Shown one piece after another: positions 8,292 through 40,400 of a DNA stretch of 64,000 bases (within the stretch, counting starts at the first letter, position 1; every line of letters starts with the position of its first letter). The notes under the pieces were generated by a model that saw only the letters and a list, made by a program, of their open reading frames with translations, was not told the origin of the DNA and ran no database searches. The position numbers were made by a program, and so were the translations under genes. The DNA comes from Botryllus schlosseri (taxonomy: Eukaryota): contig CM119371.1 of the NCBI GenBank assembly GCA_051294905.1, positions 36,830,001 through 36,894,000 of the forward strand. Direction: 5' to 3'.

Positions 8292-8621
8292 ATGCATACA
8301 AATGAGGAAAGTTACATCACGGAAGCGAAAGAGGCCAGAGATCTATTCACTCGATACAGCCATCACGCAAAGATCAGTGTCGTGTTCATATGTCAAAATT
8401 TGTTCTATAGGGGTCAAGGCTTTCGGGATATGACCTTGAGCGCGAGCTATATCGTGATATTTAAAAATCCCCGCGATGCGAGTCAAATCAGTTTTCTTTC
8501 ACGTCAAATGTTCCCGGATAAAGCCGGATTCCTTACGGAGGCTTATAAAAAGGCAACTCGAAAACCGTTCTCGTACATACTGGTTGACGTGACGCAAGAG
8601 ACAGACGAAAATTATCGTTGA
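8292..8621 (+). pseudogene. C-terminal fragment of a Polinton/Maverick A32/FtsK-like DNA packaging ATPase
   Basis: The motif string LFTRYSHHAKISVVFICQNLF, SASYIVIFKNPRDASQI..LSRQMFP, EAYKKAT.KPFSYILVD is typical of Polinton ATPases. Walker A and B are absent. The ORF stops at the junction (~8618) with the module shared with E2. Confidence 0.85.
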
Positions 8622-9854
8622 TTTCGTGAGCTTTACTTAAGTTTTATAAATTGACGAAAAAGTAGTCATTTCCGAGTAAGTAAAACGTTCGTATTGTAGG
8701 TTCATTTCTGCTTAATACTATAATTATCATGGAGTTGAAGCAGTCCAATATCAAAAACACCCGAAAGTATTTGTTGCATATAGCTAAAAACCTAATTGAG
8801 TACTCTGAAGAAGTACAAGTGGCACAGTTTGTGGTATTTCTATGACATCGAAATTTAGCTAACCAGAACTTATACTTGAGTACTCCGAAATGTACAAGTA
8901 CTTTACCTTTACACGACGTTTCTGTAAAATGAATACTGATTTTATTAAAAAATAAAAAAGCACGAAAAATTACATTTTATCCCAAACCATCAGAATACTA
9001 AAGTAGCTTATCGCGTATATGGACCTAATACTAAAGTGTTTATGATTTCAGTTCGCTTCAACTTCATGACATTTTCAGTATTAAACAGAAGTATAAGCCT
9101 AGAATGCTAACTTTCTTCGTAAATTGCTACTTCTGCCTTAATTTAACGGATTTATCCGAGATCATTGCTTTACTTAATCTCTCCAAAATGTGCATTATAC
9201 TAGTACGTCACCATCGAATCCCTCTGGCTATAACTACTCGATAGTATAATTGAGCCAAATACTCGAGTACTAATTTTAAAGTAGCTTAGGTATCTAAATG
9301 AACCGACGGTCAGTAAACCATTTCGAAGTGCAAGTACAGGAATATCATAGTTCTTGAACCGTGCTCAATGCTCAATAGACCATTTTTGCTATTTTTCATC
9401 GCCATAAGTCATTCTGGACCGCGTAAACGCATTGTACGTTATAGATGAAACTTATGCAAATCCCCGGAACGCAACAAGAAAAATCGTATAAATTTGTAAA
9501 CTACTTATTCATGACATAATAATAATTCTACTTGTACACATTTTCACATTTTATAACACTTCAAGTAGTACTTGAAAGTTTTGTCAAGTTAACAGGTTAA
9601 AAACTTATACTTGAGCACTACGAAATGTACAAGTACTTTACCTTTACACGACGTTTTGTAAAATGAATACTAATTAAAAAATAAAAAATAAAAAAGAGCG
9701 AAAAATTACATGTTATCCCGGAACGCAACAAGAAAAAATCGTAGGAATTTGTAAACTACTTATTCGGTAAACTACTCTTTACTTCACAAAACAAAGTTAC
9801 AAAAGTAAGCAGATTTATATGAAAACCCGTTAAATAGAAGTAAAAGTAATAACA

Positions 9855-10400
9855 ATGCATCATACCAAATTTGATCGCAATTTCATGATGCAATACCTTT
9901 AAAACTAACGCAGTTCTCTATACACTTTTGCGTAAATCTGTGTTTCGCTAGCGTAGCACGTACCTATACATAGTAAGCTTCAATAACGGAATTACCATGC
10001 TAATAATCAAATCCCCACCCTGAAACTCGGTACGCGGTTGTAAGACATTATGAAAATACAACATACCAAATTTCATCAGACATTTCATGATGTAACACCT
10101 TTAAAACCAACGCAGTTCTATACCGACTTTTGGCTAAATCTGTTATCCATAGCGCAGCACGTACCTATACATAGTCAACTTTAAAACGGAATTACCATGT
10201 TAATAATCGGCTCCCCACCTTGAAACTCGGTACGCAGTTGTAAGACATTATGACAATGTAGCATGTCAAATTTTGTTACGCATTTCATGATTGAACAACT
10301 TGAAAACTAACGCAGTTCTATACCGACATTTGCGTGAAACTGTTTTGCGGGAGCTTAGCGCATACCTATGCGTAGTCAACTTTAATGACGGAATTACAGA
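9855..10400 (+). repeat. ~200-bp unit tandem array (~2.7 copies), mirrored at ~15800-16347
   Basis: TTTCATGAT recurs at 9881, 10083 and 10283, along with AACGGAATTAC and TGAAACTCGGTACGC. Confidence 0.85.
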
Positions 10401-10604
10401 TGTAATTAGGTTTCAACACTTTTACAACGATTCTTCTTGCTTCCTATAACATCGCACTCGAAGCCCTCGTTATTAGGCTATGATCTCAGCCTGAGCTATG
10501 TCTTGAAGCCTACGGGACTTTGCAAATTGTTTCGATTTATTCTATACCCGTTTTAATTTAAGGAAGCCCATTTCACTCAATGTATCGATGCCTACAGTAT
10601 AGAG

Positions 10605-11926
10605 CAGGGGTTCTCAACCCGCGGCCCGCGGGCCGCATGCGGCCCGCAGACGATTCTTTTGCGGCCCGCGACATATTTCAATATAATCTCTACTGGCCCC
10701 ATATTGTTATGGAAGACCGATGAGTCACATTTGTCGAAGAACAGTTGTTGTAACAAAGCCTAGAAGCTTGAAATGATAGCACGATAGTTTCATCTGGAGT
10801 TATACCTATCAAACGTTGCTAGCTTGGTTTCAAGCCCAGCAATCCATATTTCGAATGATTTTTAAAATTTCCGCCGACGTGACAGACGCATTGTTCAAAA
10901 TGGCTTGGAATATCGCTAAACCCAATAATCTGCTAGAGAAGGTATGAGGTATGACTTCAATAACGCTTTAACGTACTGTGCGAATATTCGCTGTTTCCGG
11001 AATTTAGCAGCAAGTCCTATCACCTGACAAATTTCGAAGCTACAGTTGTCACCAGAAGAGTAACAGCGATAAGGTATGACTTGAATAAAGCTTTAACGTA
11101 CTGTGCGAATATTCGGTGTTTCCGGAACTTAGTAGCAAGTCCTGTCATCTGACAAATTTCGAAGCTACAGTTGTCACCAGAAGAGTAACAGCGATCTCAG
11201 TCGATCTTTTATCGCATGTTCTGTAACACGTTGCCACGTAGACTACGTTAGCCGAGCATTGGACCTATCCATCGATGCACACAGTGCAGACACATTGCAT
11301 AGCTAATTATCCAGGTGCTTTTTATCGGAGTGGGCATGGGCATATTTCCAGAGGAAATGCTGACGGGACAAACGTGGGAAGGGGACCAGGACATCAATTT
11401 GACAAAGCTGACTTCTGTAACTATTGGTGTAGGGCTCCAGTCATGGAAGGAAAGGAGAAGAGTTGATTGATTTGCTCGGAAATGACCCCTAACGTCTCGA
11501 TTCTTCTCATATCATATCTGAGAGCTCAAGATGATAATGGCCTCAGTAACGAAAAAGTCACCGTAATTTTATACTTGCTCGCTAACGCATTGAAACAGAA
11601 AGTTCGGTTCTCTGGTGGTGGAAAGGTTTGATGGTTGCATATACTATATACCGACATGGCAATGGATGGAATGTACGCTCCATGAAGGGATTTACTTGCG
11701 CCACTTGAAGATCGATATTCTCACAAAAACAGCAACTGCAAACTTACGAACGCTCTCCATTAATGCTTTAGAATGCATAAGAATGTACTAAATGCCCGAA
11801 TAAGACTGATAAATAGGCCTAAATTTAATAGTAGCCCACAAATACATGGTGATAATGTTCTGCGGCCCGCGGCGTCTTTTAGTGTGAAAATGCGGCCCGT
11901 TATACGAGGGAAGTTGAGAACCCCTG
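10605..11926 (+). mobile_element. hAT (Charlie-like) deletion derivative inserted in the left arm of E1
   Basis: TIR CAGGGGTTCTCAAC / GTTGAGAACCCCTG with a perfect 8-bp TSD GTATAGAG. The empty site is present in the right arm (~15598-15605). Subterminal GCGGCCCGC repeats and an internal ~125-bp tandem duplication. Confidence 0.93.
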
Positions 11927-13254
11927 GTATAGAGTATACTCTACAAAATTTTCTGTTTAATTCTCCCTATGTTAATTTACCATAAGACAGACAATTTGAC
12001 TCCTAAAGTCCGAAATACTTGTTCGCTTGAGCTAAGCCGCAGCGCCCGGAGTGGAATTTTATAGTTCTTGTAAAAAGTTGTTTATACACAATATATGTTT
12101 AAGGTAAGTCCTACGCATTCATGATTTCGTCCGAGTTTGTATTTTAGTAATATATACTAATACCGCGTTTGTAACTTGTGCAAGTAGGCCTACAGGAATA
12201 TCATAGGTAAAGTCTCTGTCTTGCATTTAGTTGCCGGCTCTGAAAGCAAGCAAAGTTTGTGGTATTTGAGCAACAGCGAAATTTGTACACTTCACGCGGG
12301 GCCTACGATACTTACGGCCTAATATGGCACATTACACTTGCTGGATATAAGAGGCCGACACTCCCAACCAGACATCACGACTGACTCAATGATTGCTTGC
12401 GATCTCACTTCTCGATACCAGACGCCTCGCCATACAAGTCTAATAAAGTATTATAACAGACAAAATTAGTTCTTTCAGATGAAACAACCCAATTAAGAGC
12501 CAAGTGATAGCGTCGCAATGTATTTAATCGTTCGGGTAGACTTGAATCGTGATCCGGATCTCGTAACATAGTAAAATCGAGGTATGTAGTTTAATTACTC
12601 ACTCACTACTCTATATGTTGGTGGTGGTCATACCCTGCAAACTTTTTTGCTGCGAACGTAGTGTTTCACCTTACATCAGTTGGTTCAATGTATGTACCGG
12701 GTTGTGAAAACTGTCGCTGTTTTGAGTATGTGTCACAATCAATACTAAATACGAGAATTCGTTACTCGTCGAAACGCCGCAGTCAGACATCGTTAACAGC
12801 GAGACGGAGACTATCAAAATATCGAAAGAAGACGTCTATTCTTTTCTGAAATAATCAAGGTTTTATCAGGACTTCCCTTCATATAAACTCCAGCAGAATC
12901 ACTAATAACCTCTCAAGTTTACTCAATTTACTCTAATTTGATACTCGTGTACCAAATCCCTATTTTCCGCAAGTAGGATAGAGGCTATCGCTCGATACTC
13001 AACGATTCGTAATTTTGCTGGAATTTTGGTACAATTAGGGATTGAAAAGTGACTGATACAAGTGGTTATGTTTGTAGGATATTTACACTTCTACTAAGCG
13101 GTTTTTCAGGAGAAACTACCTACTTTTAGGACTTTATATTTTAAAGTAGTTTAAGGTTACGGTTGTATCACCTTGAGAAATGCTATGATCAAAAACTGCT
13201 TTTGCTAAACTCTTACACATTCACTAAACTTCTACACTGAATCTTGAGCTCCAG

Positions 13255-14285
13255 GGCATTGTGATTATGCAGCATACCAAATTGCGTCACACATTTACAC
13301 TTCATGATGGAATAACTGTAAAACTAACCCAGTTCTATAGCAACTTTTGCCTACATCTGTTTTCGGTAGCGTGTACATGTACATATACATAGTCAGCTTT
13401 AATAACAGAATTACCATGCTAATATGTAACTCCTCACCTTGAAACTTGGTACGTAGTTGTAGGACATTGTTATTATGCAGCATACGAAATTTTCTTACGC
13501 ATTTCATAATGGAACAACTTTAAAACTAACGCGGCTCTATATCGACATTTTGCGTGCATCTGTTTTGTGGGGGCGTATAGTACGTACCCATACATAGCCA
13601 ACTTTAATAACGGAATTACCATGCTTAACATTGAATCCCAACTCTAAACTTGATACGTAGTTGTAGGACATTATGGCAATGCACCATGCTAGATTTCATC
13701 CCACATCTAATGATGGAACACCTTTGAAACTATCGCAGTCGAATACCGACTTTTACGCATATCTGTTTTTCGTGAACACAGCATATGCCAATACATAGTC
13801 AATTTTAATAACAGAATTAGTATGCTAAACATTAAATTCTCACCTTGAACGTTGGTACGCAGTTGTAGGACATAATAAGAATGCACCATACCAAATTTCG
13901 TCAGACATTTCATGATGTAACACCTTTAAAACCAACGCAGTTCTATACAGACTTTTGGCTAAGTCTGTTTTTCCGTAGCGTATAGCACGTACCTATGCAT
14001 AGTCAACTTTAATAACGGAATTACCATGTTAATAATCGACTCCCAACCTTGAAACTCGCTACACCGTTGTAAGACATTATGACAATGCACCATGTCAAAT
14101 TTTGTTACGCATTTCATGATTGAACAACTTCAAAACTAATCCAGTTCCATGCCGACTTTTGCGGGGGCGTAGCACGTATATGCATACTCAACTTTAATAA
14201 CGGAATTACCGAGCTTAACATTGAATGCGCAACTTGAAGATTGGTTCACAGGTGTAGGACATTATGACAATGGAACATACCACTG
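13255..14285 (+). repeat. ~200-bp unit tandem array (~5 diverged copies)
   Basis: Same unit, with a period of about 200-204 bp. Confidence 0.85.
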
Positions 14286-14929
14286 CGCTAACTTTCAGAA
14301 TTGTTAAGTATAGTACTCGCACTTTGTGAGAATACCCAAGTAGCTTCTTTGCCTACATGCACCAAATACTCTCAAGTCCTTATGATATTGGAGTACATCA
14401 ACTTCATGATAGCTAGAGTATTGAACAGAAATAGACCCAGAGTACTAACGTTTTACTTACTCGGAAATGACTACTTCTACCTTATTTTAAAGGATACCTC
14501 GTTCGAAGCGAAATTTATGTGGTTTTGGATAATATCCAAGATGTAGGCTCACTTTGAAGGGTACTTCCTAAAACTCAAATATTGCGCAAAAGTACAATTA
14601 GGGATCTAAAAGTAACTAATATAGATGGGTATTTTCGTAGATTACTTACCCTCTACTCAAGAGGTTTTTCAGGTGGAACTACCTACTTTTATGACTGTGT
14701 ATGTCAAAGTAGTTTGAGCTTACGTTTATATCACCTTGACAAGTGACATTATCACACATGAAAATGATATTATCGCGTAATACCAGAAGTTAACACACGT
14801 CAATGTGTTTCGGAAGTCACTAGAAATTGGTTACTAAGAAAAGTATTTGTGTACACAATAGCGGAGAGAATATTTAAAATGTAGTAAGCAGGCCGATGGG
14901 TATTCATTGAGTTGTATAAGCATAAAAAA

Positions 14930-14999
14930 CATTCCCGCGCGCGTCTTAGGATTAGGTGGTAGGGTTAGGCAGGGTTGGGTTTAGGAGCGCGCGGGAATG
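14930..14999. other. Symmetry-axis hairpin of E1: 13-bp GC stem plus 44-nt telomere-like G-rich loop
   Basis: CATTCCCGCGCGC / GTCTTAGGATTAGGTGGTAGGGTTAGGCAGGGTTGGGTTTAGGA / GCGCGCGGGAATG. Confidence 0.85.
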
Positions 15000-17580
15000 A
15001 ACGATTAAATACATTGCGACGATGTCACTTGGCTCTTAATTGGGTTGTTTCATCTGAAAGAACTAATTTTGTCTGTTATAATACTTTATTAGACTTGTAT
15101 GGCGAGGCGTCTGGTATCGAGAAGTGAGATCGCAAGCAATCATTGAGTCAGTCGTGATGTCTGGTTGGGAGTGTCGGCCTCTTATATCCAGCAAGTGTAA
15201 TGTGCCATATTAGGCCGTAAGTATCGTAGGCCCCGCGTGAAGTGTACAAATTTCGCTGTTGCTCAAATACCACAAACTTTGCTTGCTTTCAGAGCCGGCA
15301 ACTAAATGCAAGACAGAGACTTTACCTATGATATTCCTGTAGGCCTACTTGCACAAGTTACAAACGCGGTATTAGTATATATTACTAAAATACAAACTCG
15401 GACGAAATCATGAATGCGTAGGACTTACCTTAAACATATATTGTGTATAAACAACTTTTTACAAGAACTATAAAATTCCACTCCGGGCGCTGCGGCTTAG
15501 CTCAAGCGAACAAGTATTTCGGACTTTAGGAGTCAAATTGTCTGTCTTATGGTAAATTAACATAGGGAGAATTAAACAGAAAATTTTTTAGAGTATACTC
15601 TATACTGTAGGCATCGATACATTGAGTGAAATGGGCTTCCTTAAATTAAAACGGGTATAGAATAAATCGAAACAATTTGCAAAGTCCCGTAGGCTTCAAG
15701 ACATAGCTCAGGCTGAGATCATAGCCTAATAACGAGGGCTTCGAGTGCGATGTTATAGGAAGCAAGAAGAATCGTTGTAAAAGTGTTGAAACCTAATTAC
15801 ATCTGTAATTCCGTCATTAAAGTTGACTACGCATAGGTATGCGCTAAGCTCCCGCAAAACAGTTTCACGCAAATGTCGGTATAGAACTGCGTTAGTTTTC
15901 AAGTTGTTCAATCATGAAATGCGTAACAAAATTTAACATGCTACATTGTCATAATGTCTTACAACTGCGTACCGACTTTCAAGGTGGGGAGCCGATTATT
16001 AACATGGTAATTCCGTTTTAAAGTTGACTATGTATAGGTACGTGCTGCGCTATGGATAACAGATTTAGCCAAAAGTCGGTATAGAACTGCGTTGGTTTTA
16101 AAGGTGTTACATCATGAAATGTCTGATGAAATTTGGTATGTTGTATTTTCATAATGTCCTACAACCGCGTACCGAGTTTCAGGGTGGGGATTTGATTATT
16201 AGCATGGTAATTCCGTTATTGAAGCTTACTATGTATAGGTACGTGCTACGCTAGCGAAACACAGATTTACGCAAAAGTGTATAGAGAACTGCGTTAGTTT
16301 TAAAGGTATTGCATCATGAAATTGCGATCAAATTTGGTATGATGCATTGTTATTACTTTTACTTCTATTTAACGGGTTTTCATATAAATCTGCTTACTTT
16401 TGTAACTTTGTTTTGTGAAGTAAAGAGTAGTTTACCGAATAAGTAGTTTACAAATTCCTACGATTTTTTCTTGTTGCGTTCCGGGATAACATGTAATTTT
16501 TCGCTCTTTTTTATTTTTTATTTTTTAATTAGTATTCATTTTACAAAACGTCGTGTAAAGGTAAAGTACTTGTACATTTCGTAGTGCTCAAGTATAAGTT
16601 TTTAACCTGTTAACTTGACAAAACTTTCAAGTACTACTTGAAGTGTTATAAAATGTGAAAATGTGTACAAGTAGAATTATTATTATGTCATGAATAAGTA
16701 GTTTACAAATTTATACGATTTTTCTTGTTGCGTTCCGGGGATTTGCATAAGTTTCATCTATAACGTACAATGCGTTTACGCGGTCCAGAATGACTTATGG
16801 CGATGAAAAATAGCAAAAATGGTCTATTGAGCATTGAGCACGGTTCAAGAACTATGATATTCCTGTACTTGCACTTCGAAATGGTTTACTGACCGTCGGT
16901 TCATTTAGATACCTAAGCTACTTTAAAATTAGTACTCGAGTATTTGGCTCAATTATACTATCGAGTAGTTATAGCCAGAGGGATTCGATGGTGACGTACT
17001 AGTATAATGCACATTTTGGAGAGATTAAGTAAAGCAATGATCTCGGATAAATCCGTTAAATTAAGGCAGAAGTAGCAATTTACGAAGAAAGTTAGCATTC
17101 TAGGCTTATACTTCTGTTTAATACTGAAAATGTCATGAAGTTGAAGCGAACTGAAATCATAAACACTTTAGTATTAGGTCCATATACGCGATAAGCTACT
17201 TTAGTATTCTGATGGTTTGGGATAAAATGTAATTTTTCGTGCTTTTTTATTTTTTAATAAAATCAGTATTCATTTTACAGAAACGTCGTGTAAAGGTAAA
17301 GTACTTGTACATTTCGGAGTACTCAAGTATAAGTTCTGGTTAGCTAAATTTCGATGTCATAGAAATACCACAAACTGTGCCACTTGTACTTCTTCAGAGT
17401 ACTCAATTAGGTTTTTAGCTATATGCAACAAATACTTTCGGGTGTTTTTGATATTGGACTGCTTCAACTCCATGATAATTATAGTATTAAGCAGAAATGA
17501 ACCTACAATACGAACGTTTTACTTACTCGGAAATGACTACTTTTACGTCAATTTATAAAACTTAAGTAAAGCTCACGAAA

Positions 17581-17910
17581 TCAACGATAATTTTCGTCTG
17601 TCTCTTGCGTCACGTCAACCAGTATGTACGAGAACGGTTTTCGAGTTGCCTTTTTATAAGCCTCCGTAAGGAATCCGGCTTTATCCGGGAACATTTGACG
17701 TGAAAGAAAACTGATTTGACTCGCATCGCGGGGATTTTTAAATATCACGATATAGCTCGCGCTCAAGGTCATATCCCGAAAGCCTTGACCCCTATAGAAC
17801 AAATTTTGACATATGAACACGACACTGATCTTTGCGTGATGGCTGTATCGAGTGAATAGATCTCTGGCCTCTTTCGCTTCCGTGATGTAACTTTCCTCAT
17901 TTGTATGCAT
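17581..17910 (-). pseudogene. Mirror copy of the Polinton packaging ATPase fragment
   Basis: Translation is identical to 8292-8621, in the right arm of E1. Confidence 0.85.
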
Positions 17911-20074
17911 AGCCTACGCGAAATTGGTTACCGAATTTTTTTGATTAGTTTAGATTCCGAATTTTATTTAAAACTGAAACTGTTAAGTACTACTAAAGTG
18001 TTATAAAATGTGAAAAAGTGTACAAGTAGTTATTAGTATGTCATGAATAAGTAGTTAAAATTCATACGATTTTTCTTGTTGCGTTCCAGGATAAAATGTA
18101 ATTTTTCGCTCTTTTCTTTATTTTTTAATTTTTAATAAAATAAGTATTCATTTTACAAAAAACGTCGACTTTTGAAAATGGAAAATGCGTGAGCTCGACT
18201 AACTTTTTACGTAGTTCGAAATCGCTACTTCTATGCATTAATTCAAAGTATTTGTCAGTCATCGTAACACCGCTCATATTGCGCGCTATCTATTTATTTC
18301 ACAGATAACGAATTACTCCTACTTTTATCAGAGGATACTTTTCTAGGATTTGCCTACTAACAGTACTTAGTTTAGATTAATAAAAGTATAGTGATTGAAA
18401 ATAGATCACTGGAATATAGTTTACAGAAAACTCCACAATTCTATGTGACGTCCTTGCATACCAACAACCTCCGAACTATTCGCCGCCTCATAAACACTTG
18501 AGTAGGCCTACATCTGATGCGTGAGGGGAAAACATAGGTAAATTTTCATATGCATTTAGTTTCCAACTCTGAAAGCAAGCTTAGTCTATGATCATTCGCG
18601 TACCATTAGTATTCATTTTACAAAAACGTCGTGTAAAGGTAAAGTACTTGTACATTTCGGAGTACTCAAGTATCAGTTTTGTCAGCTTATTATATGCTCA
18701 GTATATTATACGTCACAAATTGTGGAGCATTTATGTGGGTGCTCTAGGGTGCTCTTCATTGAGTGTTCGTGTTGGGTGATAAGTTTAATTTGCAAAATTA
18801 GCGCGTTCAAATCAGGCCTGTCGCCAACATAGTGATGTCGCATTAGCCCTAAATACACATAATAGAATATAAAGGAAAAGTATCACCTAACGTATAATGA
18901 ATGTTATCTATTTCTCGGAAGCAAGTTATTATCAAAACATAGTGGTCAAAATTATCGCAGAGCAATATCGATTTGCGTAAATTCCGTTATGCGTCTGACT
19001 ACGTTACTAGGGATCATGTAGTTAGTTAAGGAATTACGAGTCCTATCTTCCCAATCGCTATGGAACAACATCAAAATCATCACAAAGCAATATCGACAAA
19101 ATCTGCTTACTTTTATAACTTTATATTTTGTGAAGTAGAGAGTAGTTTAAGGTTATGTTTGTCTAACCTTAGCGAGTGCTATTGTCACACTCGATCACCA
19201 TCTTCAAATCATGGCTATCTCAATGATGTTGACTAAATTTTCGGCTTCAGAACGTGTTAATTAGACCTAATCGTTTTAACGCTGGGGTTCGCGTACAGGC
19301 ATCGATAGAGTTTGTATAAATAAAGCCCTGCGAATCGCACGCCTACGGCTATAGTTCGTTCGATTATTTTCACCTTGGGATTCGCGTATATGCTACTAAG
19401 CTGTTACGACTTTAGAAAATTCTACAAGACTATTCGGAACGCGCACATGCGAGTGATTTGTTTCCGTAGCTCCGAACTGGAGAATCGCTTGCCTGCGTCT
19501 AATGAAAATAAGTCGTAAAATGGGGAGGCTGCAGAGAGACAGTAACTTGTATACATAAAATCGAGTTTAAAAATATGGACGGATGAGTTATCTCTGAGCA
19601 ATAGAGTAATATAACCGCCTATAGTTTAGTGGGGTATTGGTATAATGTATATCCAAACAATCGTTGCAGACTCTGAATGTTACCTAGGTCCTTATCACAA
19701 AAAATCATTCATCAGAAGCGTAGGGGCTCATATTATCAAGTCGCAGCGCTCAAAATCGCATTTTATATTAAGTAATTAGTGATGATGTGTAGAATTTTGA
19801 TATTAATAATATTATCCGGAGAATATAGCCTTACATAGACATCATAGTTTTCGCATTTATGTATAATCTGAATAGGAATTTAAATACATAGTCCTAAATA
19901 CACATAATAGAAAATCTGTCGATTCTAGCCAAGGTAAGTTTTGACGCAGCAATTGTGGATGATGTAACAAGGGGTGTCCTATAGGTGCGGCAATGGGCGT
20001 CATATAGGCGTGGCAATTAGGGCGACGTGGCGAAATTTGATTGGCCTGCACGAAAAAAGGATGACAACACTACT

Positions 20075-20142
20075 CACGCACCCGTCGTTAGGGGATTTGC
20101 AGTATCCGTGATTATTTGCCTCGCAATTCGGTACGGCGGACA
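20075..20142 (-). CDS. Exon 2, 5' part (VSAVPNCEANNHGYCKSPNDGCV), interrupted by E1
   Basis: Acceptor TTTTTTCAG|TG. The frame continues up to the TSD (TGCGTG = Cys-Val). Confidence 0.8.
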
Positions 20143-26813: not shown

Positions 26814-28290
26814 AGTAGTGAGGGTTGATCAAATTGGTACGCACCAATCACAGAACGCCACGTCATCCTAATTGCCACGCCTATATGACGCCCATTGTCA
26901 CGCCTACAGGATGCCCATTGCCACGTCACCTACCACTGCCACATCGTGTGTATTTATGAGCAAATTTCATTGTTTTGTGAATTTCAATACCGGTTTTCCA
27001 TGTATATTTAGCAATATGTATTGAATAACTTGAAATGTATCATCACTAATTAATTAATATAAAATGCGATTTTAAGCGCTGCGACTTGAAAATATTAATA
27101 TAATAACTTACTTTTTTGGATATAAATAACATTCAGATTACACATAAATTTCTAAAACTATGACGTCAATAGAATACTATATTTGCCAGATATTCACAGA
27201 TAACACTCATCAACGTTGAACTAGGCGCGGGGTTCTATGATGATATATCAAAATTCTACACATCATCACTAATTAATTAATTCATATAAAATGCGATTTT
27301 GAGCGCAGACAGATCGCGGTTTCGATTGCCGAGGTCTCCGCATTTCATGACCTTATATGAGCGCACACTACAACTGAATTCATTCCAATACCTGCAAATT
27401 TACTTTGCATGTCGAGTATAAGGATAATTTAATCAGCACTAAACGCCAACGGACTAGCCGTAGGCGCACAATTCTCGGCGTTACAATTAAACAAACTTTT
27501 CGCGGCAGGTACGCGATTCCCGACGTTATAATGATAGTGACAAATTAGCCGCATGAAAGCGAGTCTAATGAATATAACGACAGACAACAAGTTAGTTGAA
27601 AAGTAAAACTAATCGTGACCGATGCAAGACGACGTAAAACAGCGCTTTCGCTCGATTCTTGTAGTGACCACATTTCATACGATTCAGTCCTTTTCATGTC
27701 ACTAGAATAAGGGTGATTAAACCAACAGTGAAACGCCGCCGACGTCTTATAACGTAATAATGTAAGCTGCGTCGGGTGCTGCTATAATGTTAGGAGCGAA
27801 TATAGTAGAAAGTCCACGTCTGGACACCTATAAGCAAGTGTGCATACTACCGTAGTAAACGCATAACAGAATTCATGCAAAAGTCTATATTGCTTTGTGA
27901 TGATTTTGATGTTGTTCCATACCGATTGGGAAGATAGGACTCCTAATTTCCTTATCCCGGAACGTAGCAAGAAAAATCGTATAAATTTTGTAAAGTAGAT
28001 AGAAAACTACACTATTCCGATGCAGTAAAGACTCTTACATGCTGGATTTTGTGCAGTATATACTAATTTTACATTGCGGAGTATTCCATAAACGTTAATC
28101 CAGTGATCCTCCTTCTATTTTCAATCACGATCCGCTTATTATTCTAGGCTTCGAACCCCACACCCAGTACATTTTATGGGGATTAATATTTTTAGATTAA
28201 ATATAGCGTATCGAGACTTCGTGAAACTTACTCGGAAATAGTTATTTCTACCCTAATTTAATAGATTTCTCAGATATCGTAGCAACGGAA

Positions 28291-28372
28291 CTGGCTTCAG
28301 CGAGCGGTTAAGGCGTTGGACTTAAGTTTCAATGAACAAGTGTTCACATAGGTTCGAATCCCACACCCACTA
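28291..28372 (+). tRNA. Degenerate tRNA-Leu(UAA)-like sequence inside E2
   Basis: CGAGCGGTTAAGGCG D-arm, TTGGA-CTTAAGT-TTCAA anticodon arm, long variable arm GAACA..TGTTC and GGTTCGAATCC T-arm. The acceptor stem does not pair, so it is probably a pseudogene. Confidence 0.7.
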
Positions 28373-29696
28373 CGTTTACGAGAATTAATATTTTTAGATT
28401 CAAATTTAGCGTATTGAGTACTTTTTCTGCCTTTTTCAGCGCATTAGAGACGTTTACACTATTGATTTCATGAGCTTTACTTAAGTTTTATAAATTAACG
28501 TAAAAGTAGTCATTTCCGAGTAAGTAAAACGTTCGTATTGTAGGTTCATTTCTGCTTAATACTATAATTATCATGGAGTTGAAGCAGTCCAATATCAAAA
28601 ACACCCGAAAGTATTTGTTGCATATAGCTAAAATCCTAATTGAGTACTCTGAAGAAGTACAAGTAGCACAGTTTGTGGTATTTCTATGACATCGAAATTT
28701 AGCTAACCAGAACTTATACTTGAGTAGTCCGAAATGTACAAGTACTTTACCTTTACACGACGTTTCTGTAAAATGAATACTGATTTTATTAAAAATAAAA
28801 AAGCACGAAAAATTACATTTTATCCCAAACCATCAGAATACTAAAGTAGCTTATCGCGTATATGGAGCTAATACTAAAGTGTTTATGATTTCAGTTCGCT
28901 TCAACTTCATGACATTTTCAGTATTAAACAGAAGTATAGGCCTAGAATGCTAACTTTCTTCGTAAATTGCTACTTCTACCTTAATTTAACGGATTTATCT
29001 GAGATCATTGCTTTACTTAATCTCTCCAAAATGTGCATTATACTAGTACGTCACCATCGAATCCCTCTGGCTATAACTACCCGATAGTATAATTGAGCCA
29101 AATACTCGAGTACTAATTTTAAAGTAGCTTAGGTATCTAAATGAACCGACGGTCAGTAAACCATTTCGAAGTGCAAGTACAGGAATATCATAGTTCTTGA
29201 ACCGTGCTCAATGCTCAATAGACCATTTTTGCTATTTTTCATCGCCATAAGTCATTCTGGACCGCGTAAACGCATTGTACGTTATAGATGAAACTTATGC
29301 AAATCCCCGGAACGCAACAAGAAAAATCGTATGAATTTGTAAACTACTTATTCATGACATAATAATAATTCTACTTGTACACATTTTCACATTTTATAAC
29401 ACTTTAAGTAGTACTTGAAAGTTTTGTCAAGTTAACAGGTTAAAAACTTATACTTGAGCACTACGAAATGTACAAGTACTTTACCTTTACACGACGTTTT
29501 GTAAAATGAATACTAATTAAAAAATAAAAAATAAAAAAGAGCGAAAAATTACATGTTATCCCGGAACGCAACAAGAAAAATCGTAGGAATTTGTAAACTA
29601 CTTATTCGGTAAACTACTCTTTCCTTCACAAAACAAAGTTACAAAAGTAAGCAGATTTATATGAAAACCCGTTAAATAGAAGTAAAAGTAATAACA

Positions 29697-30245
29697 ATGC
29701 ATCATACCAAATTTGATCGCAATTTCATGATGCAATACCTTTAAAACTAACGCAGTTCTCTATACACTTTTGCGTAAATCTGTGTTTCGCTAGCGTAGCA
29801 CGTACCTATACATAGTAAGCTTCAATAACGGAATTACCATGCTAATAATCAAATCCCCCACCCTGAAACTCGGTACGCGGTTGTAGGACATTATGAAAAT
29901 ACAACATACCAAATTTCATCAGACATTTCATGATGTAACACCTTTAAAACCAACGCAGTTCTATACCGACTTTTGGCTAAATCTGTTATCCATAGCGCAG
30001 CACGTACCTATACATAGTCAACTTTAAAACGGAATTACCATGTTAATAATCGGCTCCCCACCTCGAAACTCGGTACGCAGTTGTAAGACATTATGACAAT
30101 GTACCATGTCAAATTTTGTTACGCATTTCATGATTGAACAACTTGAAAACTAACGCAGTTCTATACCGACATTTGCGTGAAACTGTTTTGCGGGAGCTTA
30201 GCGCATACCTATGCGTAGTCAACTTTAATGACGGAATTACAGATG
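29697..30245 (+). repeat. ~200-bp unit array in E2, mirrored at ~38596-39144
   Basis: Near-identical to 9855-10400. Confidence 0.85.
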
Positions 30246-32719
30246 TAATTAGGTTTCAACACTTTTACAACGATTCTTCTTGCTTCCTATAACATCACAC
30301 TCGAAGCCCTCGTTATTAGGCTATGATCTCAGCCTGAGCTATGTCTTGAAGCCTACGGACAATTTCATGATGCAATACCTTTAAAACTAACGCAGTTCTC
30401 TACACACTGATTAATTCTCCCTATGTTAATTTACCATAAGACAGACAATTTGACTCCTAAAGTCCGAAATACTTGTTCGCTTGAGCTAAGCCGCAGCGCC
30501 TGGAGTGGAATTTTATAGTTCTTGTAAAAAGTTGTTTATACACAATATATGTTTAAGGTAAGTCCTACGCATTCATGATTTCGTCCGAGTTTGTATTTTA
30601 GTAATATATACTAATACCGCGTTTGTAACTTGTGCAAGTAGGCCTACAGGAATATCATAGGTAAAGTCTCTGTCTTGCATTTAGTTGCCGGCTCTGAAAG
30701 CAAGCAAAGTTTGTGGTATTTGCGCAACATCGAAATTTGTACACTTCACGCGGGGCCTACGATACTTACGGCCTAATATGGCACATTACACTTGCTGGAT
30801 ATAAGAGGCCGACACTCCCAACCAGACATCACGACTGACTCAATGATTGCTTGCGATCTCACTTCTCGATACCAGACGCCTCGCCATACAAGTCTAATAA
30901 AGTATTATAACAGACAAAATTAGTTCTTTCAGATGAAACAACCCAATTAAGAGCCAAGTGACAGCGTCGCAATGTATTTAATCGTTCAGGTAGACTTGAA
31001 TCGTGATCCGGATCTCGTAACATAGTAAAATCGAGGTATGTAGTTTAATTACTCACTCACTACTCTATATGTTGGTGGTGGTCATACCCTGCAAACTTTT
31101 TTGCTGCGAACGTAGTGTTTCACCTTACATCAGTTGGTTCAATGTATGTACCGGGTTGTGAAAACTGTCGCTGTTTTGACTATGTGTCACAATCAATACT
31201 AAATACGAGAATTCGTTACTCGTCGAAACGCCGCAGTCAGACATCGTTAACAGCGATTCCGTGTATGGCAATCTTGAGTTCAATTGCGGTTTTGTGATGT
31301 TAACCAAGCGGCTGTGTTTCTGCGGTGTGAAGACTGAATTCGTGTTGTTTCCCTGCAAGAGTGCGATGTCTATTTCACACCTAGAGCAATTATAAAACGC
31401 ATCTTCGAAACTTTTGGTCTAGTTCATCCGCTTGCATTTCGAAACGGACCATCACGACAAGACTCTAACCCACCACATCCGAGGTTTCAGTTGATCATAT
31501 CGAAGAATATCATGTCCATCCGTGTTACCACCCACAGATTTCGCCATCCTCACACGGTAGTGCTAAGACACAGACAAGATGCGGTGGTGGAAATATTGAA
31601 AATGAGAAAGCAGACCTTGGTGTCATTTGATTTGGATTTTACACCCGATGAACCCACCATTCGAACTGCGCATTGGGATGAGGATTCTATCATTGATGTC
31701 GAGGGAAAGGAGATGTACAGATTTGTTGGTGTCGTGAATATTCAACGAAAGTCGGGGTATATGCTTGTGCATGGTTCGCGTATTTGACTGTGAAGATATC
31801 GCTATACATAACGTGCTGTTCACCGTATCGATAGCACCAACGAATATCCGTGAAAGGGTTGTAATCTCGGTGAAATAGTGTGCGACACATTTTTCCACAA
31901 TTCGAATGCATGTCGGTTCATACTAAGACCATGTTACGGTCAAATATGTGTGTTTTTCTGTCTCCAAGTCAGCTACCCCTCACATTGAATGTACAGAGTC
32001 GGTGCATGTATGAGACTTCAGAACATGAATTTGTAATCCATGATGCTTGTAATGCCGGCCATGATGTTATCCATGATGTATGTAATGTCACACACCTCGT
32101 TTACGCGAATACTTGGTATCTATGAACAATCGTGAAGTATACTGGATGTGTAATGTCTTGTTATTTTCATGGAAACACGAGGGTGTAACATGTTTGAATA
32201 TTGTTCATTGGTTTGTCGATTCAGAGTTAAAATACGTATTGACCAATAAAGAGTGACACAATATAGTAAACATGTGTGAGAAAACTCACAAGTAACCCGG
32301 ATTTGTTAGCGCGACGGGGACATAAATTCAACCATTATCCGTGTACCAAGCAGTTACCAAAGTCATGGAGGTTGCTAATTTCAACATATTGACTCTGTGG
32401 GAGGCTAAAGCACGAACCGGGACACACACAGACACACACACCAGGACACACAATATCCGTCGATTTCCAAAGCATACATTTCGATATACAAGAGCATATT
32501 GTTATTTCATGTGGTTAACCGTTGATATAGATGCGATGCGATCGACGCGGGTATACTCTGAAACCGGTTGTCCGTTTATATGAGAAAAGATGCTGTGAAG
32601 GACTTTAAAAAGCGGCAATTGAGCATAGTTGTGTCGAGTTACCGAATGATTTTTTCCTTACATCAAAACAACTAGAATGTGTAACTACATTAAACACGTA
32701 TCTAAATGAGCTCCAGGGC

Positions 32720-33735
32720 TTTGTGATTATGCAGCATACCAAATTGCATCACACATTTACATTTCATGATGGAATAACTTTAAAACTAACGCAGTTCTAT
32801 AGCAACTTTTGCCTACATCTGTTTCGCTAGCGTGTACATGTACATATACATAGTCAGCTTTAATACCAGAATTACCATGCTAATATGTGAATCCTCACCT
32901 TGAAACTTGGTACGTAGTTGTAGGACATTGTGATTATGCAGCATACGAAATTTCCTCACGCATTTCATAATGGAACAACTTTAAAACTAACGCGGCTCTA
33001 CATCGACATTTTGCGTACATCTGTTTTGTGAGGGGCGTATAGTACGTACCCAACTTTAATAACGGAATTACCATGCTTAACATTGAATCCCAACTCTAAA
33101 CTTGATACGTAGTTGTAGGAGATTATGGCAATGCACCATGCTAGATTTCATCATCACACATCTAATGATGGAACACCTTTGAAACTATCGCAGTCGAATA
33201 CCGACTTTTACGCATATCTGCTTTTCGTGAACACAGCATATACCCATACATAGTCAATTTTAATACCAGAATTAGTATGCTAAACATCAAATTCTCGCCT
33301 TGAACGTTGGTACGCAGTTGTAGGACATAATAAGAATGAACCATACCAAATTTCGTCACACATTTCATGATGTAACACCTTTAAAACCAACGCAGTTCTA
33401 TACAGACTTTTGGTTAAGTCTGTTTTTCCGTAGCGTAGCACGTACCTATGCATAGTCAACTTTAATAACGGAATTACCATGTTAATAATCGACTCCCAAC
33501 CTTGAAACTCGCTACACCGTTGTAAGACATTATGAAAATGCACCATGTCAAATTTTGTTACGCATTTCATGATTGAACAACTTTAAAACTAATCCAGTTC
33601 CATGCCGACTTTTGCGGGGGCGTAGCACGTACCTATGCATACTCAACTTTAATAACGGAATTACCGAGCTTAACATTGAATGCGCAACTTGAAGATCGGT
33701 TCACAGGTGTAGGACATTATGACAATGGAACATAC
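32720..33735 (+). repeat. ~200-bp unit array in E2 (~5 copies), mirrored at ~35106-36121
   Basis: Near-identical to 13255-14285. Confidence 0.85.
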
Positions 33736-34387
33736 CACTGCGCTAACTTTCAGAATTGTTAAGTATAGTACTCGCACTTTGTGAGAATACCCAAGTAGGT
33801 TTTTTGCCTACATGCACCAAATACTCTCAAGTCCTTATGATATTGGAGTACATCAACTTCATGATAGCTAGAGTATTGAACAGAAATGGACCTAGAGTAC
33901 TAACGTTTTACTTACTCGGAAATGACTACTTCTACCTTATTTTAAAGGATACCTCGTTCGAAGCGAAATTTATGTGGTTTTGGATAATATCCAAGATGTT
34001 GGCTCGCTTTGAAGGGTACTTCCTAAAACTCAAATATTGCGCAAAAGTACAATTAGGGATCTAAAAGTAACTAATATAGATGGTTATTTCCGTAGATAAC
34101 TTACCCTCTACTCAAGAGGTTTTTCAGGTGGAACTACCTACTTTTAGGACTGTGTATGTCAAAGTAGTTTGAGCTTACGTTTATATCACCTTGACAAGTG
34201 ACATTATCAGACATGAAAATGATATTATCACGTAATACCAGAAGTTAACACACGTCAATGTGTTTCGTAATTCAAGAGAAATTGGTTACTAAGAGAAGTA
34301 TATTCTTGTGTACACAATAGCGGAGAGAATATTTAAAATGTAGTAAGCAGGCCGATGGGTATTCATTGAGTTGTATAAGCATAAAAA

Positions 34388-34452
34388 CATTCCCGCGCGC
34401 TTCTAAACCCTGCCTAACCCTACCACCTAATCCTAAGACGCACGCGGGAATG
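34388..34452. other. Symmetry axis of E2: same GC stem plus 39-nt telomere-like loop (C-rich strand on +)
   Basis: Loop 34401-34439 TTCTAAACCCTGCCTAACCCTACCACCTAATCCTAAGAC is the reverse complement of the E1 loop minus one GGGTT, with one substitution. Confidence 0.9.
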
Positions 34453-37400
34453 TTTTTATGCTTATACAACTCAATGAATACCCATCGGCCTGCTTACTAC
34501 ATTTTAAATATTCTCTCCGCTATTGTGTACACAAGAATATACTTCTCTTAGTAACCAATTTCTCTTGAATTCCGAAACACATTGACGTGTGTTAACTTCT
34601 GGTATTACGTGATAATATCATTTTCATGTCTGATAATGTCACTTGTCAAGGTGATATAAACGTAAGCTCAAACTACTTTGACATACACAGTCCTAAAAGT
34701 AGGTAGTTCCACCTGAAAAACCTCTTGAGTAGAGGGTAAGTTATCTACGGAAATAACCATCTATATTAGTTACTTTTAGATCCCTAATTGTACTTTTGCG
34801 CAATATTTGAGTTTTAGGAAGTACCCTTCAAAGCGAGCCAACATCTTGGATATTATCCAAAACCACATAAATTTCGCTTCGAACGAGGTATCCTTTAAAA
34901 TAAGGTAGAAGTAGTCATTTCCGAGTAAGTAAAACGTTAGTACTCTAGGTCCATTTCTGTTCAATACTCTAGCTATCATGAAGTTGATGTACTCCAATAT
35001 CATAAGGACTTGAGAGTATTTGGTGCATGTAGGCAAAAAAACCTACTTGGGTATTCTCACAAAGTGCGAGTACTATACTTAACAATTCTGAAAGTTAGCG
35101 CAGTGGTATGTTCCATTGTCATAATGTCCTACACCTGTGAACCGATCTTCAAGTTGCTCATTCAATGTTAAGCTCGGTAATTCCGTTATTAAAGTTGAGT
35201 ATGCATAGGTACGTGCTACGCCCCCGCAAAAGTCGGCATGGAACTGGATTAGTTTTAAAGTTGTTCAATCATGAAATGCGTAACAAAATTTGACATGGTG
35301 CATTTTCATAATGTCTTACAACGGTGTAGCGAGTTTCAAGGTTGGGAGTCGATTATTAACATGGTAATTCCGTTATTAAAGTTGACTATGCATAGGTACG
35401 TGCTACGCTACGGAAAAACAGACTTAACCAAAAGTCTGTATAGAACTGCGTTGGTTTTAAAGGTGTTACATCATGAAATGTGTGACGAAATTTGGTATGG
35501 TTCATTCTTATTATGTCCTACAACTGCGTACCAACGTTCAAGGCGAGAATTTGATGTTTAGCATACTAATTCTGGTATTAAAATTGACTATGTATGGGTA
35601 TATGCTGTGTTCACGAAAAGCAGATATGCGTAAAAGTCGGTATTCGACTGCGATAGTTTCAAAGGTGTTCCATCATTAGATGTGTGATGATGAAATCTAG
35701 CATGGTGCATTGCCATAATCTCCTACAACTACGTATCAAGTTTAGAGTTGGGATTCAATGTTAAGCATGGTAATTCCGTTATTAAAGTTGGGTACGTACT
35801 ATACGCCCCTCACAAAACAGATGTACGCAAAATGTCGATGTAGAGCCGCGTTAGTTTTAAAGTTGTTCCATTATGAAATGCGTGAGGAAATTTCGTATGC
35901 TGCATAATCACAATGTCCTACAACTACGTACCAAGTTTCAAGGTGAGGATTCACATATTAGCATGGTAATTCTGGTATTAAAGCTGACTATGTATATGTA
36001 CATGTACACGCTAGCGAAACAGATGTAGGCAAAAGTTGCTATAGAACTGCGTTAGTTTTAAAGTTATTCCATCATGAAATGTAAATGTGTGATGCAATTT
36101 GGTATGCTGCATAATCACAAAGCCCTGGAGCTCATTTAGATACGTGCTTAATGTAGTTACACATTCTAGTTGTTTTGATGTAAGGAAAAAATCATTCGGT
36201 AACTCGACACAACTATGCTCAATTGCCGCTTTTTAAAGTCCTTCACAGCATCTTTTCTCATATAAACGGACAACCGGTTTCAGAGTATACCCGCGTCGAT
36301 CGCATCGCATCTATATCAACGGTTAACCACATGAAATAACAATATGCTCTTGTATATCGAAATGTATGCTTTGGAAATCGACGGATATTGTGTGTCCTGG
36401 TGTGTGTGTCTGTGTGTGTCCCGGTTCGTGCTTTAGCCTCCCACAGAGTCAATATGTTGAAATTAGCAACCTCCATGACTTTGGTAACTGCTTGGTACAC
36501 GGATAATGGTTGAATTTATGTCCCCGTCGCGCTAACAAATCCGGGTTACTTGTGAGTTTTCTCACACATGTTTACTATATTGTGTCACTCTTTATTGGTC
36601 AATACGTATTTCAACTCTGAATCGACAAACCAATGAACAATATTTAAACATGTTACACCCTCGTGTTTCCATGAAAATAACAAGACATTACACATCCAGT
36701 ATACTTCACGATTGTTCATAGATACCAAGTATTCGCGTAAACGAGGTGTGTGACATTACATACATCATGGATAACATCATGGCCGGCATTACAAGCATCA
36801 TGGATTACAAATTCATGTTCTGAAGTCTCATACATGCACCGACTCTGTACATTCAATGTGAGGGGTAGCTGACTTGGAGACAGAAAAACACACATATTTG
36901 ACCGTAACATGGTCTTAGTATGAACCGACATGCATTCGAATTGTGGAAAAATGTGTCGCACACTATTTCACCGAGATTACAACCCTTTCACGGATATTCG
37001 TTGGTGCTATCGATACGGTGAACAGCACGTTATGTATAGCGATATCTTCACAGTCAAATACGCGAACCATGCACAAGCATATACCCCGACTTTCGTTGAA
37101 TATTCACGACACCAACAAATCTGTACATCTCCTTTCCCTCGACATCAATGATAGAATCCTCATCCCAATGCGCAGTTCGAATGGTGGGTTCATCGGGTGT
37201 AAAATCCAAATCAAATGACACCAAGGTCTGCTTTCTCATTTTCAATATTTCCACCACCACATCTTGTCTGTGTCTTAGCACTACCGTGTGAGGATGGCGA
37301 AATCTGTGGGTGGTAACACGGATGGACATGATATTCTTCGATATGATCAACTGAAACCTCGGATGTGGTGGGTTAGAGTCTTGTCGTGATGGTCCGTTTC

Positions 37401-40400
37401 GAAATGCAAGCGGATGAACTAGACCAAAAGTTTCGAAGATGCGTTTTATAATTGCTCTAGGTGTGAAATAGACATCGCACTCTTGCAGGGAAACAACACG
37501 AATTCAGTCTTCACACCGCAGAAACACAGCCGCTTGGTTAACATCACAAAACCGCAATTGAACTCAAGATTGCCATACACGGAATCGCTGTTAACGATGT
37601 CTGACTGCGGCGTTTCGACGAGTAACGAATTCTCGTATTTAGTATTGATTGTGACACATAGTCAAAACAGCGACAGTTTTCACAACCCGGTACATACATT
37701 GAACCAACTGATGTAAGGTGAAACACTACGTTCGCAGCAAAAAAGTTTGCAGGGTATGACCACCACCAACATATAGAGTAGTGAGTGAGTAATTAAACTA
37801 CATACCTCGATTTTACTATGTTACGAGATCCGGATCACGATTCAAGTCTACCTGAACGATTAAATACATTGCGACGCTGTCACTTGGCTCTTAATTGGGT
37901 TGTTTCATCTGAAAGAACTAATTTTGTCTGTTATAATACTTTATTAGACTTGTATGGCGAGGCGTCTGGTATCGAGAAGTGAGATCGCAAGCAATCATTG
38001 AGTCAGTCGTGATGTCTGGTTGGGAGTGTCGGCCTCTTTTATCCAGCAAGTGTAATGTGCCATATTAGGCCGTAAGTATCGTAGGCCCCGCGTGAAGTGT
38101 ACAAATTTCGATGTTGCGCAAATACCACAAACTTTGCTTGCTTTCAGAGCCGGCAACTAAATGCAAGACAGAGACTTTACCTATGATATTCCTGTAGGCC
38201 TACTTGCACAAGTTACAAACGCGGTATTAGTATATATTACTAAAATACAAACTCGGACGAAATCATGAATGCGTAGGACTTACCTTAAACATATATTGTG
38301 TATAAACAACTTTTTACAAGAACTATAAAATTCCACTCCAGGCGCTGCGGCTTAGCTCAAGCGAACAAGTATTTCGGACTTTAGGAGTCAAATTGTCTGT
38401 CTTATGGTAAATTAACATAGGGAGAATTAATCAGTGTGTAGAGAACTGCGTTAGTTTTAAAGGTATTGCATCATGAAATTGTCCGTAGGCTTCAAGACAT
38501 AGCTCAGGCTGAGATCATAGCCTAATAACGAGGGCTTCGAGTGTGATGTTATAGGAAGCAAGAAGAATCGTTGTAAAAGTGTTGAAACCTAATTACATCT
38601 GTAATTCCGTCATTAAAGTTGACTACGCATAGGTATGCGCTAAGCTCCCGCAAAACAGTTTCACGCAAATGTCGGTATAGAACTGCGTTAGTTTTCAAGT
38701 TGTTCAATCATGAAATGCGTAACAAAATTTGACATGGTACATTGTCATAATGTCTTACAACTGCGTACCGAGTTTCGAGGTGGGGAGCCGATTATTAACA
38801 TGGTAATTCCGTTTTAAAGTTGACTATGTATAGGTACGTGCTGCGCTATGGATAACAGATTTAGCCAAAAGTCGGTATAGAACTGCGTTGGTTTTAAAGG
38901 TGTTACATCATGAAATGTCTGATGAAATTTGGTATGTTGTATTTTCATAATGTCCTACAACCGCGTACCGAGTTTCAGGGTGGGGGATTTGATTATTAGC
39001 ATGGTAATTCCGTTATTGAAGCTTACTATGTATAGGTACGTGCTACGCTAGCGAAACACAGATTTACGCAAAAGTGTATAGAGAACTGCGTTAGTTTTAA
39101 AGGTATTGCATCATGAAATTGCGATCAAATTTGGTATGATGCATTGTTATTACTTTTACTTCTATTTAACGGGTTTTCATATAAATCTGCTTACTTTTGT
39201 AACTTTGTTTTGTGAAGGAAAGAGTAGTTTACCGAATAAGTAGTTTACAAATTCCTACGATTTTTCTTGTTGCGTTCCGGGATAACATGTAATTTTTCGC
39301 TCTTTTTTATTTTTTATTTTTTAATTAGTATTCATTTTACAAAACGTCGTGTAAAGGTAAAGTACTTGTACATTTCGTAGTGCTCAAGTATAAGTTTTTA
39401 ACCTGTTAACTTGACAAAACTTTCAAGTACTACTTAAAGTGTTATAAAATGTGAAAATGTGTACAAGTAGAATTATTATTATGTCATGAATAAGTAGTTT
39501 ACAAATTCATACGATTTTTCTTGTTGCGTTCCGGGGATTTGCATAAGTTTCATCTATAACGTACAATGCGTTTACGCGGTCCAGAATGACTTATGGCGAT
39601 GAAAAATAGCAAAAATGGTCTATTGAGCATTGAGCACGGTTCAAGAACTATGATATTCCTGTACTTGCACTTCGAAATGGTTTACTGACCGTCGGTTCAT
39701 TTAGATACCTAAGCTACTTTAAAATTAGTACTCGAGTATTTGGCTCAATTATACTATCGGGTAGTTATAGCCAGAGGGATTCGATGGTGACGTACTAGTA
39801 TAATGCACATTTTGGAGAGATTAAGTAAAGCAATGATCTCAGATAAATCCGTTAAATTAAGGTAGAAGTAGCAATTTACGAAGAAAGTTAGCATTCTAGG
39901 CCTATACTTCTGTTTAATACTGAAAATGTCATGAAGTTGAAGCGAACTGAAATCATAAACACTTTAGTATTAGCTCCATATACGCGATAAGCTACTTTAG
40001 TATTCTGATGGTTTGGGATAAAATGTAATTTTTCGTGCTTTTTTATTTTTAATAAAATCAGTATTCATTTTACAGAAACGTCGTGTAAAGGTAAAGTACT
40101 TGTACATTTCGGACTACTCAAGTATAAGTTCTGGTTAGCTAAATTTCGATGTCATAGAAATACCACAAACTGTGCTACTTGTACTTCTTCAGAGTACTCA
40201 ATTAGGATTTTAGCTATATGCAACAAATACTTTCGGGTGTTTTTGATATTGGACTGCTTCAACTCCATGATAATTATAGTATTAAGCAGAAATGAACCTA
40301 CAATACGAACGTTTTACTTACTCGGAAATGACTACTTTTACGTTAATTTATAAAACTTAAGTAAAGCTCATGAAATCAATAGTGTAAACGTCTCTAATGC

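Follow-up and report, generated by a model that had tools for sequence, protein, structure and literature searches.

Panhandle replication is known from adenoviruses, and the replication of animal Polintons has so far been inferred by analogy with those viruses. Polintons, also called Mavericks, are described in passages of PMC8097293 as elements of about 17 kb with 5'-(AGT)2//(ACT)2-3' or (AG)3//(CT)3 ends and a 6-bp target duplication. For adeno-associated virus (AAV), published work describes end repair via a panhandle (PMC11575299) and snap-back genomes (PMC10556190). This text is about two large palindromic elements with Maverick ends, called E1 and E2, in a stretch of 64,000 nucleotides of the Botryllus schlosseri genome (GCA_051294905.1, contig CM119371.1, positions 36,830,001 to 36,894,000). 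The whole of this stretch is called the window (G000:C1:36830001-36894000). The genome searched is the 495-Mb assembly, in 219 contigs.

Both elements are palindromic, non-autonomous and derived from a Maverick/Polinton clade that lives in the same genome. This identity follows from their ends, their target duplications, a terminal repeat shared with coding copies and a captured ATPase gene fragment. The preliminary description of the window had not named the family, and it is the family that supplies a mechanism. The symmetry of these elements was probably made during replication driven by a coding helper, before insertion, by re-copying of a template. New here are a test of the mirroring on multiple copies, the link to a specific helper clade, a variable terminal window and limits on the use of the arms as a clock.

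Two palindromes with Polinton ends

A self-comparison of the window yields two large inverted repeats, E1 (6086-20074) and E2 (26814-42027). Both start with AGTAGT and finish with ACTACT. Positions below are on the forward strand unless the reverse strand is named; the palindromes as a whole, their centres and the nested insertion have no strand. E1 measures 13,989 bp and lies between two copies of the 6-bp duplication CACGCA (6080-6085 and 20075-20080). E2 measures 15,214 bp, and its duplication is TACCCC (26808-26813 and 42028-42033).

The arms of E2 are about 7.59 kb long and 99.87% alike. They differ by nine substitutions and one indel in 7,592 columns, with zero differences in the outer 3,988. 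At the centre (34388-34452) is a 13-bp GC stem around a 39-nt single-copy loop, C-rich on one strand and G-rich on the other. The loop itself (34401-34439, seen also at loci L060-L075) has degenerate CCTAA/CCCTAA units on its C-rich strand and seven GG runs on the opposite one; a folded G structure here could stall a polymerase.

The outer left arm of E1 (6086-10604) is mirrored at 15598-20074; over 4,519 columns the two differ by 13 substitutions and a 42-bp indel. Further in, E1 has lost its symmetry through an insertion in the left arm and a deletion in the right one. The insertion, found in the left arm only (10605-11926), is 1,322 bp long, with short terminal repeats and an 8-bp duplication GTATAGAG, and is presumably hAT-like. 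The deletion took away the mirror (~2.4 kb) of the inner left arm (12534-14929) and starts at the foot of the central stem. The GC stem and single-copy loop of E1 are at 14930-14999.

Palindromes of this kind form a dispersed unit. Eight were traced end to end, all with different flanks and seven with perfect target duplications, and the element centre is present at at least 40 loci. They are self-complementary, the arms being 99.8-100% alike up to a 39-44-nt loop. In one copy, C16a, the centre is an asymmetric spacer of 1,074 nt that comes from one of the arms. The recurrence of the loop does not show that it is under constraint, since loop-bearing centres were chosen by their likeness to that of E2; C3a, C3b and C3c, which were chosen by their core, have the loop as well, and C16a does not. 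The arms are mosaics, in which modules common to several copies appear in differing combinations. Two arrays of 200-bp tandem units, at 29696-30240 (2.7 units) and 32759-33616 (4.3 units) of E2, are both mirrored and both also found in E1.

The genes of an autonomous Polinton (protein-primed polB, integrase, ATPase, capsid) are absent from E1 and E2, which are therefore not autonomous members. The open reading frames (ORFs) inside them measure only 100-109 aa. A coding Polinton at G000:C4:14444530-14463178 has 168-bp terminal repeats, to which the terminus of E1 (6086-6253) is 86-87% identical over 168 bp; ten coding copies have the same layout. Among 33 non-coding or untyped elements, 28 have a perfect 6-bp duplication and five have one mismatch, and it is perfect in nine of ten coding ones.

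The left arm of E1 also carries a 303-bp fragment of a Polinton A32-like ATPase gene (8316-8618), with 98% nucleotide identity to a coding copy, which stops where the core shared with E2 starts. Its mirror is on the reverse strand of the right arm (17584-17886). The source of this fragment lies 7.7 kb inside the helper, and in a genome search in which 150 of 212 candidates were scored, the ATPase of the helper clade is 97-98% identical to it. The 109-aa ORF of E1 is 69% identical to the ATPase of another coding Polinton, at C1:20.44 Mb, which is 17.8 kb long and has 238-bp terminal repeats, the duplication AATGTT, an integrase and an A32 ATPase. In another palindrome, both arms contain some 1 kb from the right end of the helper, at 88% (L029:265-1280 and L030:2923-3938).

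Protein queries of the genome bring up many coding Polintons, and polB-like matches in the helper clade fall between end pairs found with the E1 terminus. One coding copy has a 1,292-aa ORF that is nearest to PF03175 clusters with an Atlas feature score of 0.96, which is a lead and not an alignment; Pfam and PDB sequence searches gave this ORF no name, and Atlas alone did. This copy also matches Pox_A32 and rve with a chromodomain, and weakly a double jelly-roll (E 0.012).

The ends and the captured helper DNA suggest that helper proteins act in trans to replicate E1 and E2 and to integrate them. The palindromes examined whole measure 12.7-17.1 kb, versus some 15.5-18.7 kb for coding copies. 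From this nearness in size, packaging of the palindromes in helper capsids may be guessed at.

Variants mirrored in both arms

The preliminary description held that variants specific to one element occur in both of its arms, and gave four motifs as examples. This is borne out, since all four are found exactly once per strand. E1 has GGACCTAATA at 9021 (mirror 17172-17181) and TTTACTTCAC at 9778 (mirror 16415-16424). E2 has GGAGCTAATA at 28864, one base on from the 28863 first given (mirror 39968-39977), and TTTCCTTCAC at 29620 (mirror 39212-39221).

These motifs lie in a core common to both elements, at 8618-10515 in E1 and 28462-30358 in E2, with mirrors at 15687-17584 and 38483-40379. The four-way alignment of this core (8618-10515) contains 23 variable columns. 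Nineteen split by element (16 substitutions and three one-base indels), none split by side and none crosswise. The remaining four are single-arm differences, all in E1.

A replacement of roughly 50 bp, reported earlier as specific to E2 and mirrored, turns out to span 49 bp (30359-30407, mirror 38434-38482). It takes the place of about 115 bp and is templated, as a 47/49 copy of 29719-29767, 640 bp upstream. Among 30 loci its junctions occur in two, which are the two arms of E2; the left junction of the E1 type is found in 21.

An arm tree had been suggested as a check, in which arms should cluster by element. They pair by element in all nine two-armed elements; these nine are the top scorers among 142 matches, a choice that favours young copies. 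Within an element the cores have 0-4 differences, and between elements 7-26 (median 18). Leaving aside indel columns, 49 substitutions are private to one element and mirrored, 11 are mirrored and shared between elements, another 11 are in a single arm, and 0 have a mixed pattern; five unpaired arms are in the tree and outside these counts. Beside the loop, where 16 of 17 centres could be scored, 30 variants are private and mirrored, 16 are shared and mirrored, 8 are in one arm and 3 are mixed; a single divergent element contributes 19 of the 30, which are perhaps partly misalignment.

Mirroring is also found at the very ends. Between AGTAGT and CCAATC lies a stretch of fixed length, nt 7-30 of the terminus, here called the terminal window. 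In E1 it is at 6092-6115, followed by CCAATC, and in E2 at 26820-26843, with the other end identical. Both ends were available for 43 of the 47 end pairs studied (the loci include L031-L050 and L095-L152). A copy is called coding if there is a polB-like or ATPase match between its ends; untyped copies were examined at their ends.

The 24 nt of the terminal window take on 35 forms in these 43 copies. Two copies differ there at 12.8 of 24 positions on average, and at 4.0 in the following 24 nt. The two ends of one copy differ at only 4 of 1,032 nt, and they are the same in 40 of 43 copies: 8/8 whole palindromes, 22/25 untyped copies and 10/10 coding ones. Six elements with cores within about 1% of each other have different terminal windows, and one palindrome has the same terminal window as two coding copies. 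Its columns are associated more strongly than in shuffles as far as about 10 nt apart, and by about 14 nt the association has fallen to background. This suggests that the variety arises through shuffling of short blocks.

Mirroring is shown for point changes and indels, for the templated replacement, for helper DNA that was captured and for the terminal windows.

Origin of the symmetry and the arms as a clock

Under the favoured reading, symmetry comes before insertion. The element would be copied outside the chromosome by the protein-primed, strand-displacing polymerase of the helper, and inserted by the helper's integrase. A displaced or nascent strand would fold on itself into a long hairpin, so that one arm templates the other. 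This could proceed from the centre, with a snap-back turn at the central hairpin, or from the 3' end, as panhandle repair. Any point change, templated replacement or capture of helper DNA, and any new terminal window, would then become two-sided before insertion, and after it the arms would mostly drift apart independently. Homogenisation seemingly happens in long blocks and is not always complete, which would make arm divergence only a rough measure of age.

Two possibilities had been left side by side in the preliminary description, regeneration of both arms from one template and conversion from arm to arm. The first is now the better supported, because nt 7-30 are mirrored even in coding Polintons, the helper fragment is mirrored, one-arm indels persist and divergence is even up to 0.9%. 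What weighs most is the terminal window of the coding copies, whose repeats are short (100-240 bp), 15-19 kb apart and directly next to unrelated flanks. Placed 7-30 nt from non-homologous sequence, this window is presumably a poor substrate for conversion in place.

Conversion would mean that the arms are alike mainly through gene conversion between them in the chromosome, after insertion, and that private mirrored variants are one-arm mutations copied across. As the main process this is unlikely, though it may well play a secondary part. Besides the extreme ends, it has to contend with large one-arm lesions that were left unrepaired: the 1.3-kb insertion and 2.4-kb deletion in E1, and a 1.28-kb duplication in C9. 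Two older copies have arm divergences of 0.5% and 0.9% that are spread evenly, and six of eight arm pairs are uniform, with two of eight non-uniform (P 0.008 and 0.014). A dense one-arm cluster of C11a, in 200-bp arrays and maybe the result of misaligned repeats, was outside these tests. GC-biased fixation, finally, is not seen: among the 49 mirrored variants there are 18 AT-to-GC changes and 17 GC-to-AT, with polarity taken from the column majority and with low power.

Several observations weigh against symmetry before insertion, and many of these favour conversion. First, the target duplications have 5 mismatches in 198 positions (33 elements, non-coding or untyped), as opposed to 7 in 1,650 terminal arm positions (0.42%; one sample of 15). 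That the duplications are the more mismatched is what would be expected of arms kept young by conversion. The Poisson P of the excess is 0.002, and it becomes 0.15 if three mismatches at position 6 are discounted as errors of the junction. These three of the five imperfect duplications are at L033/L034, L037/L038 and L047/L048, and their shared position suggests imprecise junction repair.

Second, one-arm differences are unevenly placed. In six whole elements, the quartiles from end to loop contain 4, 9, 10 and 15 of them, and the mean positions per element are heterogeneous (P 0.0007). The test, devised post hoc, did not include E1, C16a, C3c, the indels of C13 or a five-event cluster in the duplicated piece of C9. 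Conversion tracts would explain this unevenness too. Stretches of kilobases are without differences right beside stretches with several (the outer 3,988 bp of E2, 4,566 bp in C11e and the inner 6,097 bp of C3a), and for the human Y palindrome P6, PMC3723533 reports tracts that average 2 kb in length and can exceed 9 kb. The rule that outer arms are always cleaner was also considered and rejected, as E1 and C3a have it reversed.

Third, the age of the host sequence may leave sufficient time for conversion. E2 is inserted in a LINE on the reverse strand, between its endonuclease and reverse-transcriptase domains. The 3' part (24184-26807; reverse transcriptase and RNase H) is broken by E2, and the 5' part (42034-44343) holds an ORF1 that has no Pfam match and the endonuclease domain. 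This LINE is nearly full length, with one private stop at 25786-25788 and a closest relative that is 99% alike. It has 8 private changes in 2,605 sites (0.31%), versus 7 private mirrored substitutions in 2,795 sites of E2 (0.25%, the 49-bp replacement excluded). The variants of E2 may thus have arisen in place.

In addition, the arms of C16a match without a difference over 5,814 bp although this copy lacks the central hairpin, and a need for the hairpin is thus not shown. A few one-arm alleles recur in other elements, and the mutation spectrum showed no difference between mirrored and single-arm changes, on 49 versus 11 events. All evidence comes from one haploid assembly.

In a more mundane explanation, the reads of one arm overwrote the other during assembly or polishing, or fold-back chimeric reads made the palindromes. 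In its favour, C13 (L018/L019, G000:C13:21.24-21.25 Mb) has eight one-base indels, the base always missing from the same arm, that are probably sequencing error. Among the sequencing runs listed for the left part of E1, four from one sample contain 0.49-0.66 of its words and all others 0.30 or less, which speaks neither for nor against an artefact. Being one-sided, these same indels indicate that the arms were called independently. Artefacts are also hard to square with perfect 6-bp duplications between unrelated flanks, with E2 sitting inside the reading frame of a LINE, with the substitutions, insertions and deletions that are kept in one arm, and with mirrored terminal windows next to unique flanks in coding Polintons. 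Such an origin is very improbable.

Still less credible are foldback-type cut-and-paste transposons, or break-induced inverted duplications, that picked up Polinton pieces by chance: most of each arm matches neither of the two coding Polintons compared, and the internal 200-bp arrays resemble those of foldback elements, but the symmetry ends exactly at AGTAGT beside a 6-bp duplication, the terminus layout is base for base that of coding Polintons, which largely refutes the idea, and cut-and-paste would transmit parental arm differences, yet there are 0 mixed patterns in the core.

Arm divergence was proposed earlier as a clock, in the manner of long terminal repeat (LTR) pairs. It ranges from 0 (C16a, over 5,814 bp) to 0.9% (C11c), and it tends to be higher in copies whose duplications are mismatched. 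The proposal holds only as a rough ranking of copies by age, because one-arm differences are not uniform along the arms, so that arms may start above zero divergence or be partly reset; the target duplications also look older than the arms. With this caution, E2 (~0.12%) appears to be younger than E1 (~0.3%).

The private variants, helper captures and shuffled origin window, each of them two-sided, would be sequence footprints of a fold-back or panhandle step. A more specific and tentative proposal makes these elements snap-back satellites of an animal polintovirus that are heritable and capsid-sized. Each would be half a genome, protein-primed at one end and with a hairpin at the other, of which the unfolded dimer integrates. 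Satellites and helpers would swap 4-8-nt origin blocks (in nt 7-30) by template switching at initiation, each new origin being written to both ends. An animal germline would then carry a DNA-virus-like satellite as a fixed component, and the chromosomal copies of the family would preserve, like fossils, intermediates of Polinton replication that have never been seen directly. Palindromes of multiple kilobases and with nearly no spacer can in any case arise repeatedly and survive in chromosomes.

Related copies and known systems

Some further features of E2 and its relatives were recorded. E2 has a tRNA-Leu(TAA)-like sequence (28290-28373, mirror 40468-40551) that is about 84% like the tRNA-Leu of a coding Polinton. 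It scores under the Rfam gathering threshold, and Rfam gave 0 matches over 6000-42100.

A coding Polinton nested in a palindrome (L052:1280-3013, L053:6100-6931) comes with Bcl-2, BIR and ubiquitin-conjugating ORFs and tRNA genes for Ala, Pro and Leu; the Bcl-2 ORF is inside the ends of the nested Polinton itself. The coding Polinton on G000:C4 has an array of 713-bp units (L055:4605-7858), 98-99% alike and each with an internal AGTAGT, of which a short piece is also in the palindromes C11c, C11e and C1c. Another coding Polinton (L105/L106, G000:C4:15.22-15.24 Mb) has matching termini, unrelated flanks and no target duplication, and was maybe recombined between loci or mis-paired.

A third arm lies beside a complete palindrome at G000:C5:5918060-5932080, and pairs of central hairpins in the same orientation, 4.6-11.5 kb apart, are found at C10:21041242/21052784, C16:11766895/11772164 and C11:4853087/4857740. 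These are possibly nested or concatemeric forms.

Kapitonov and Jurka reportedly described gene-less, helper-dependent, non-autonomous Polintons with Polinton ends in 2006, and palindromic ones may be among them or in Repbase. The palindromic architecture may thus have been described earlier. No description of palindromic Polinton derivatives or of a variable origin window was found in the portions consulted of the searchable full-text literature, which most subscription papers are outside of. The string 'palindrom' is absent from the passages available of PMC8097293, PMC6431247, PMC11414722 and PMC5499653.

Compared with LTR pairs, E1 and E2 similarly have two repeats that presumably match at insertion and later drift. 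They differ in that the reset is not shown to be complete, the differences are unevenly placed, and inverted arms are prone to deletion and conversion.

The palindromes of Y and X chromosomes (PMC3723533) are alike in having arms over 99% alike, variants common to both arms and long identical tracts. E1 and E2, by contrast, are dispersed mobile elements, with no GC bias seen and with one-arm lesions that persist.

The snap-back and panhandle forms of AAV (PMC10556190 and PMC11575299) share with E1 and E2 a self-complementary genome, one type of end that is duplicated, symmetric and asymmetric forms, helper dependence and an end that is copied from its opposite. Unlike these, E1 and E2 are integrated with a target duplication, heritable and present in many copies, and their helper is a protein-primed double-stranded DNA element. 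The likeness is in the working only.

Closest are the Mavericks themselves. E1 and E2 agree with them in end motif, 6-bp duplication and size (12-17 kb against about 17 kb in the passages of PMC8097293), and with the co-resident coding copies in the terminal repeat and the ATPase gene fragment. Where E1 and E2 depart from Mavericks is in having no polymerase, integrase or capsid gene, an inverted repeat of 6-8.5 kb that fills the element, a conserved central hairpin and mosaic non-coding arms.

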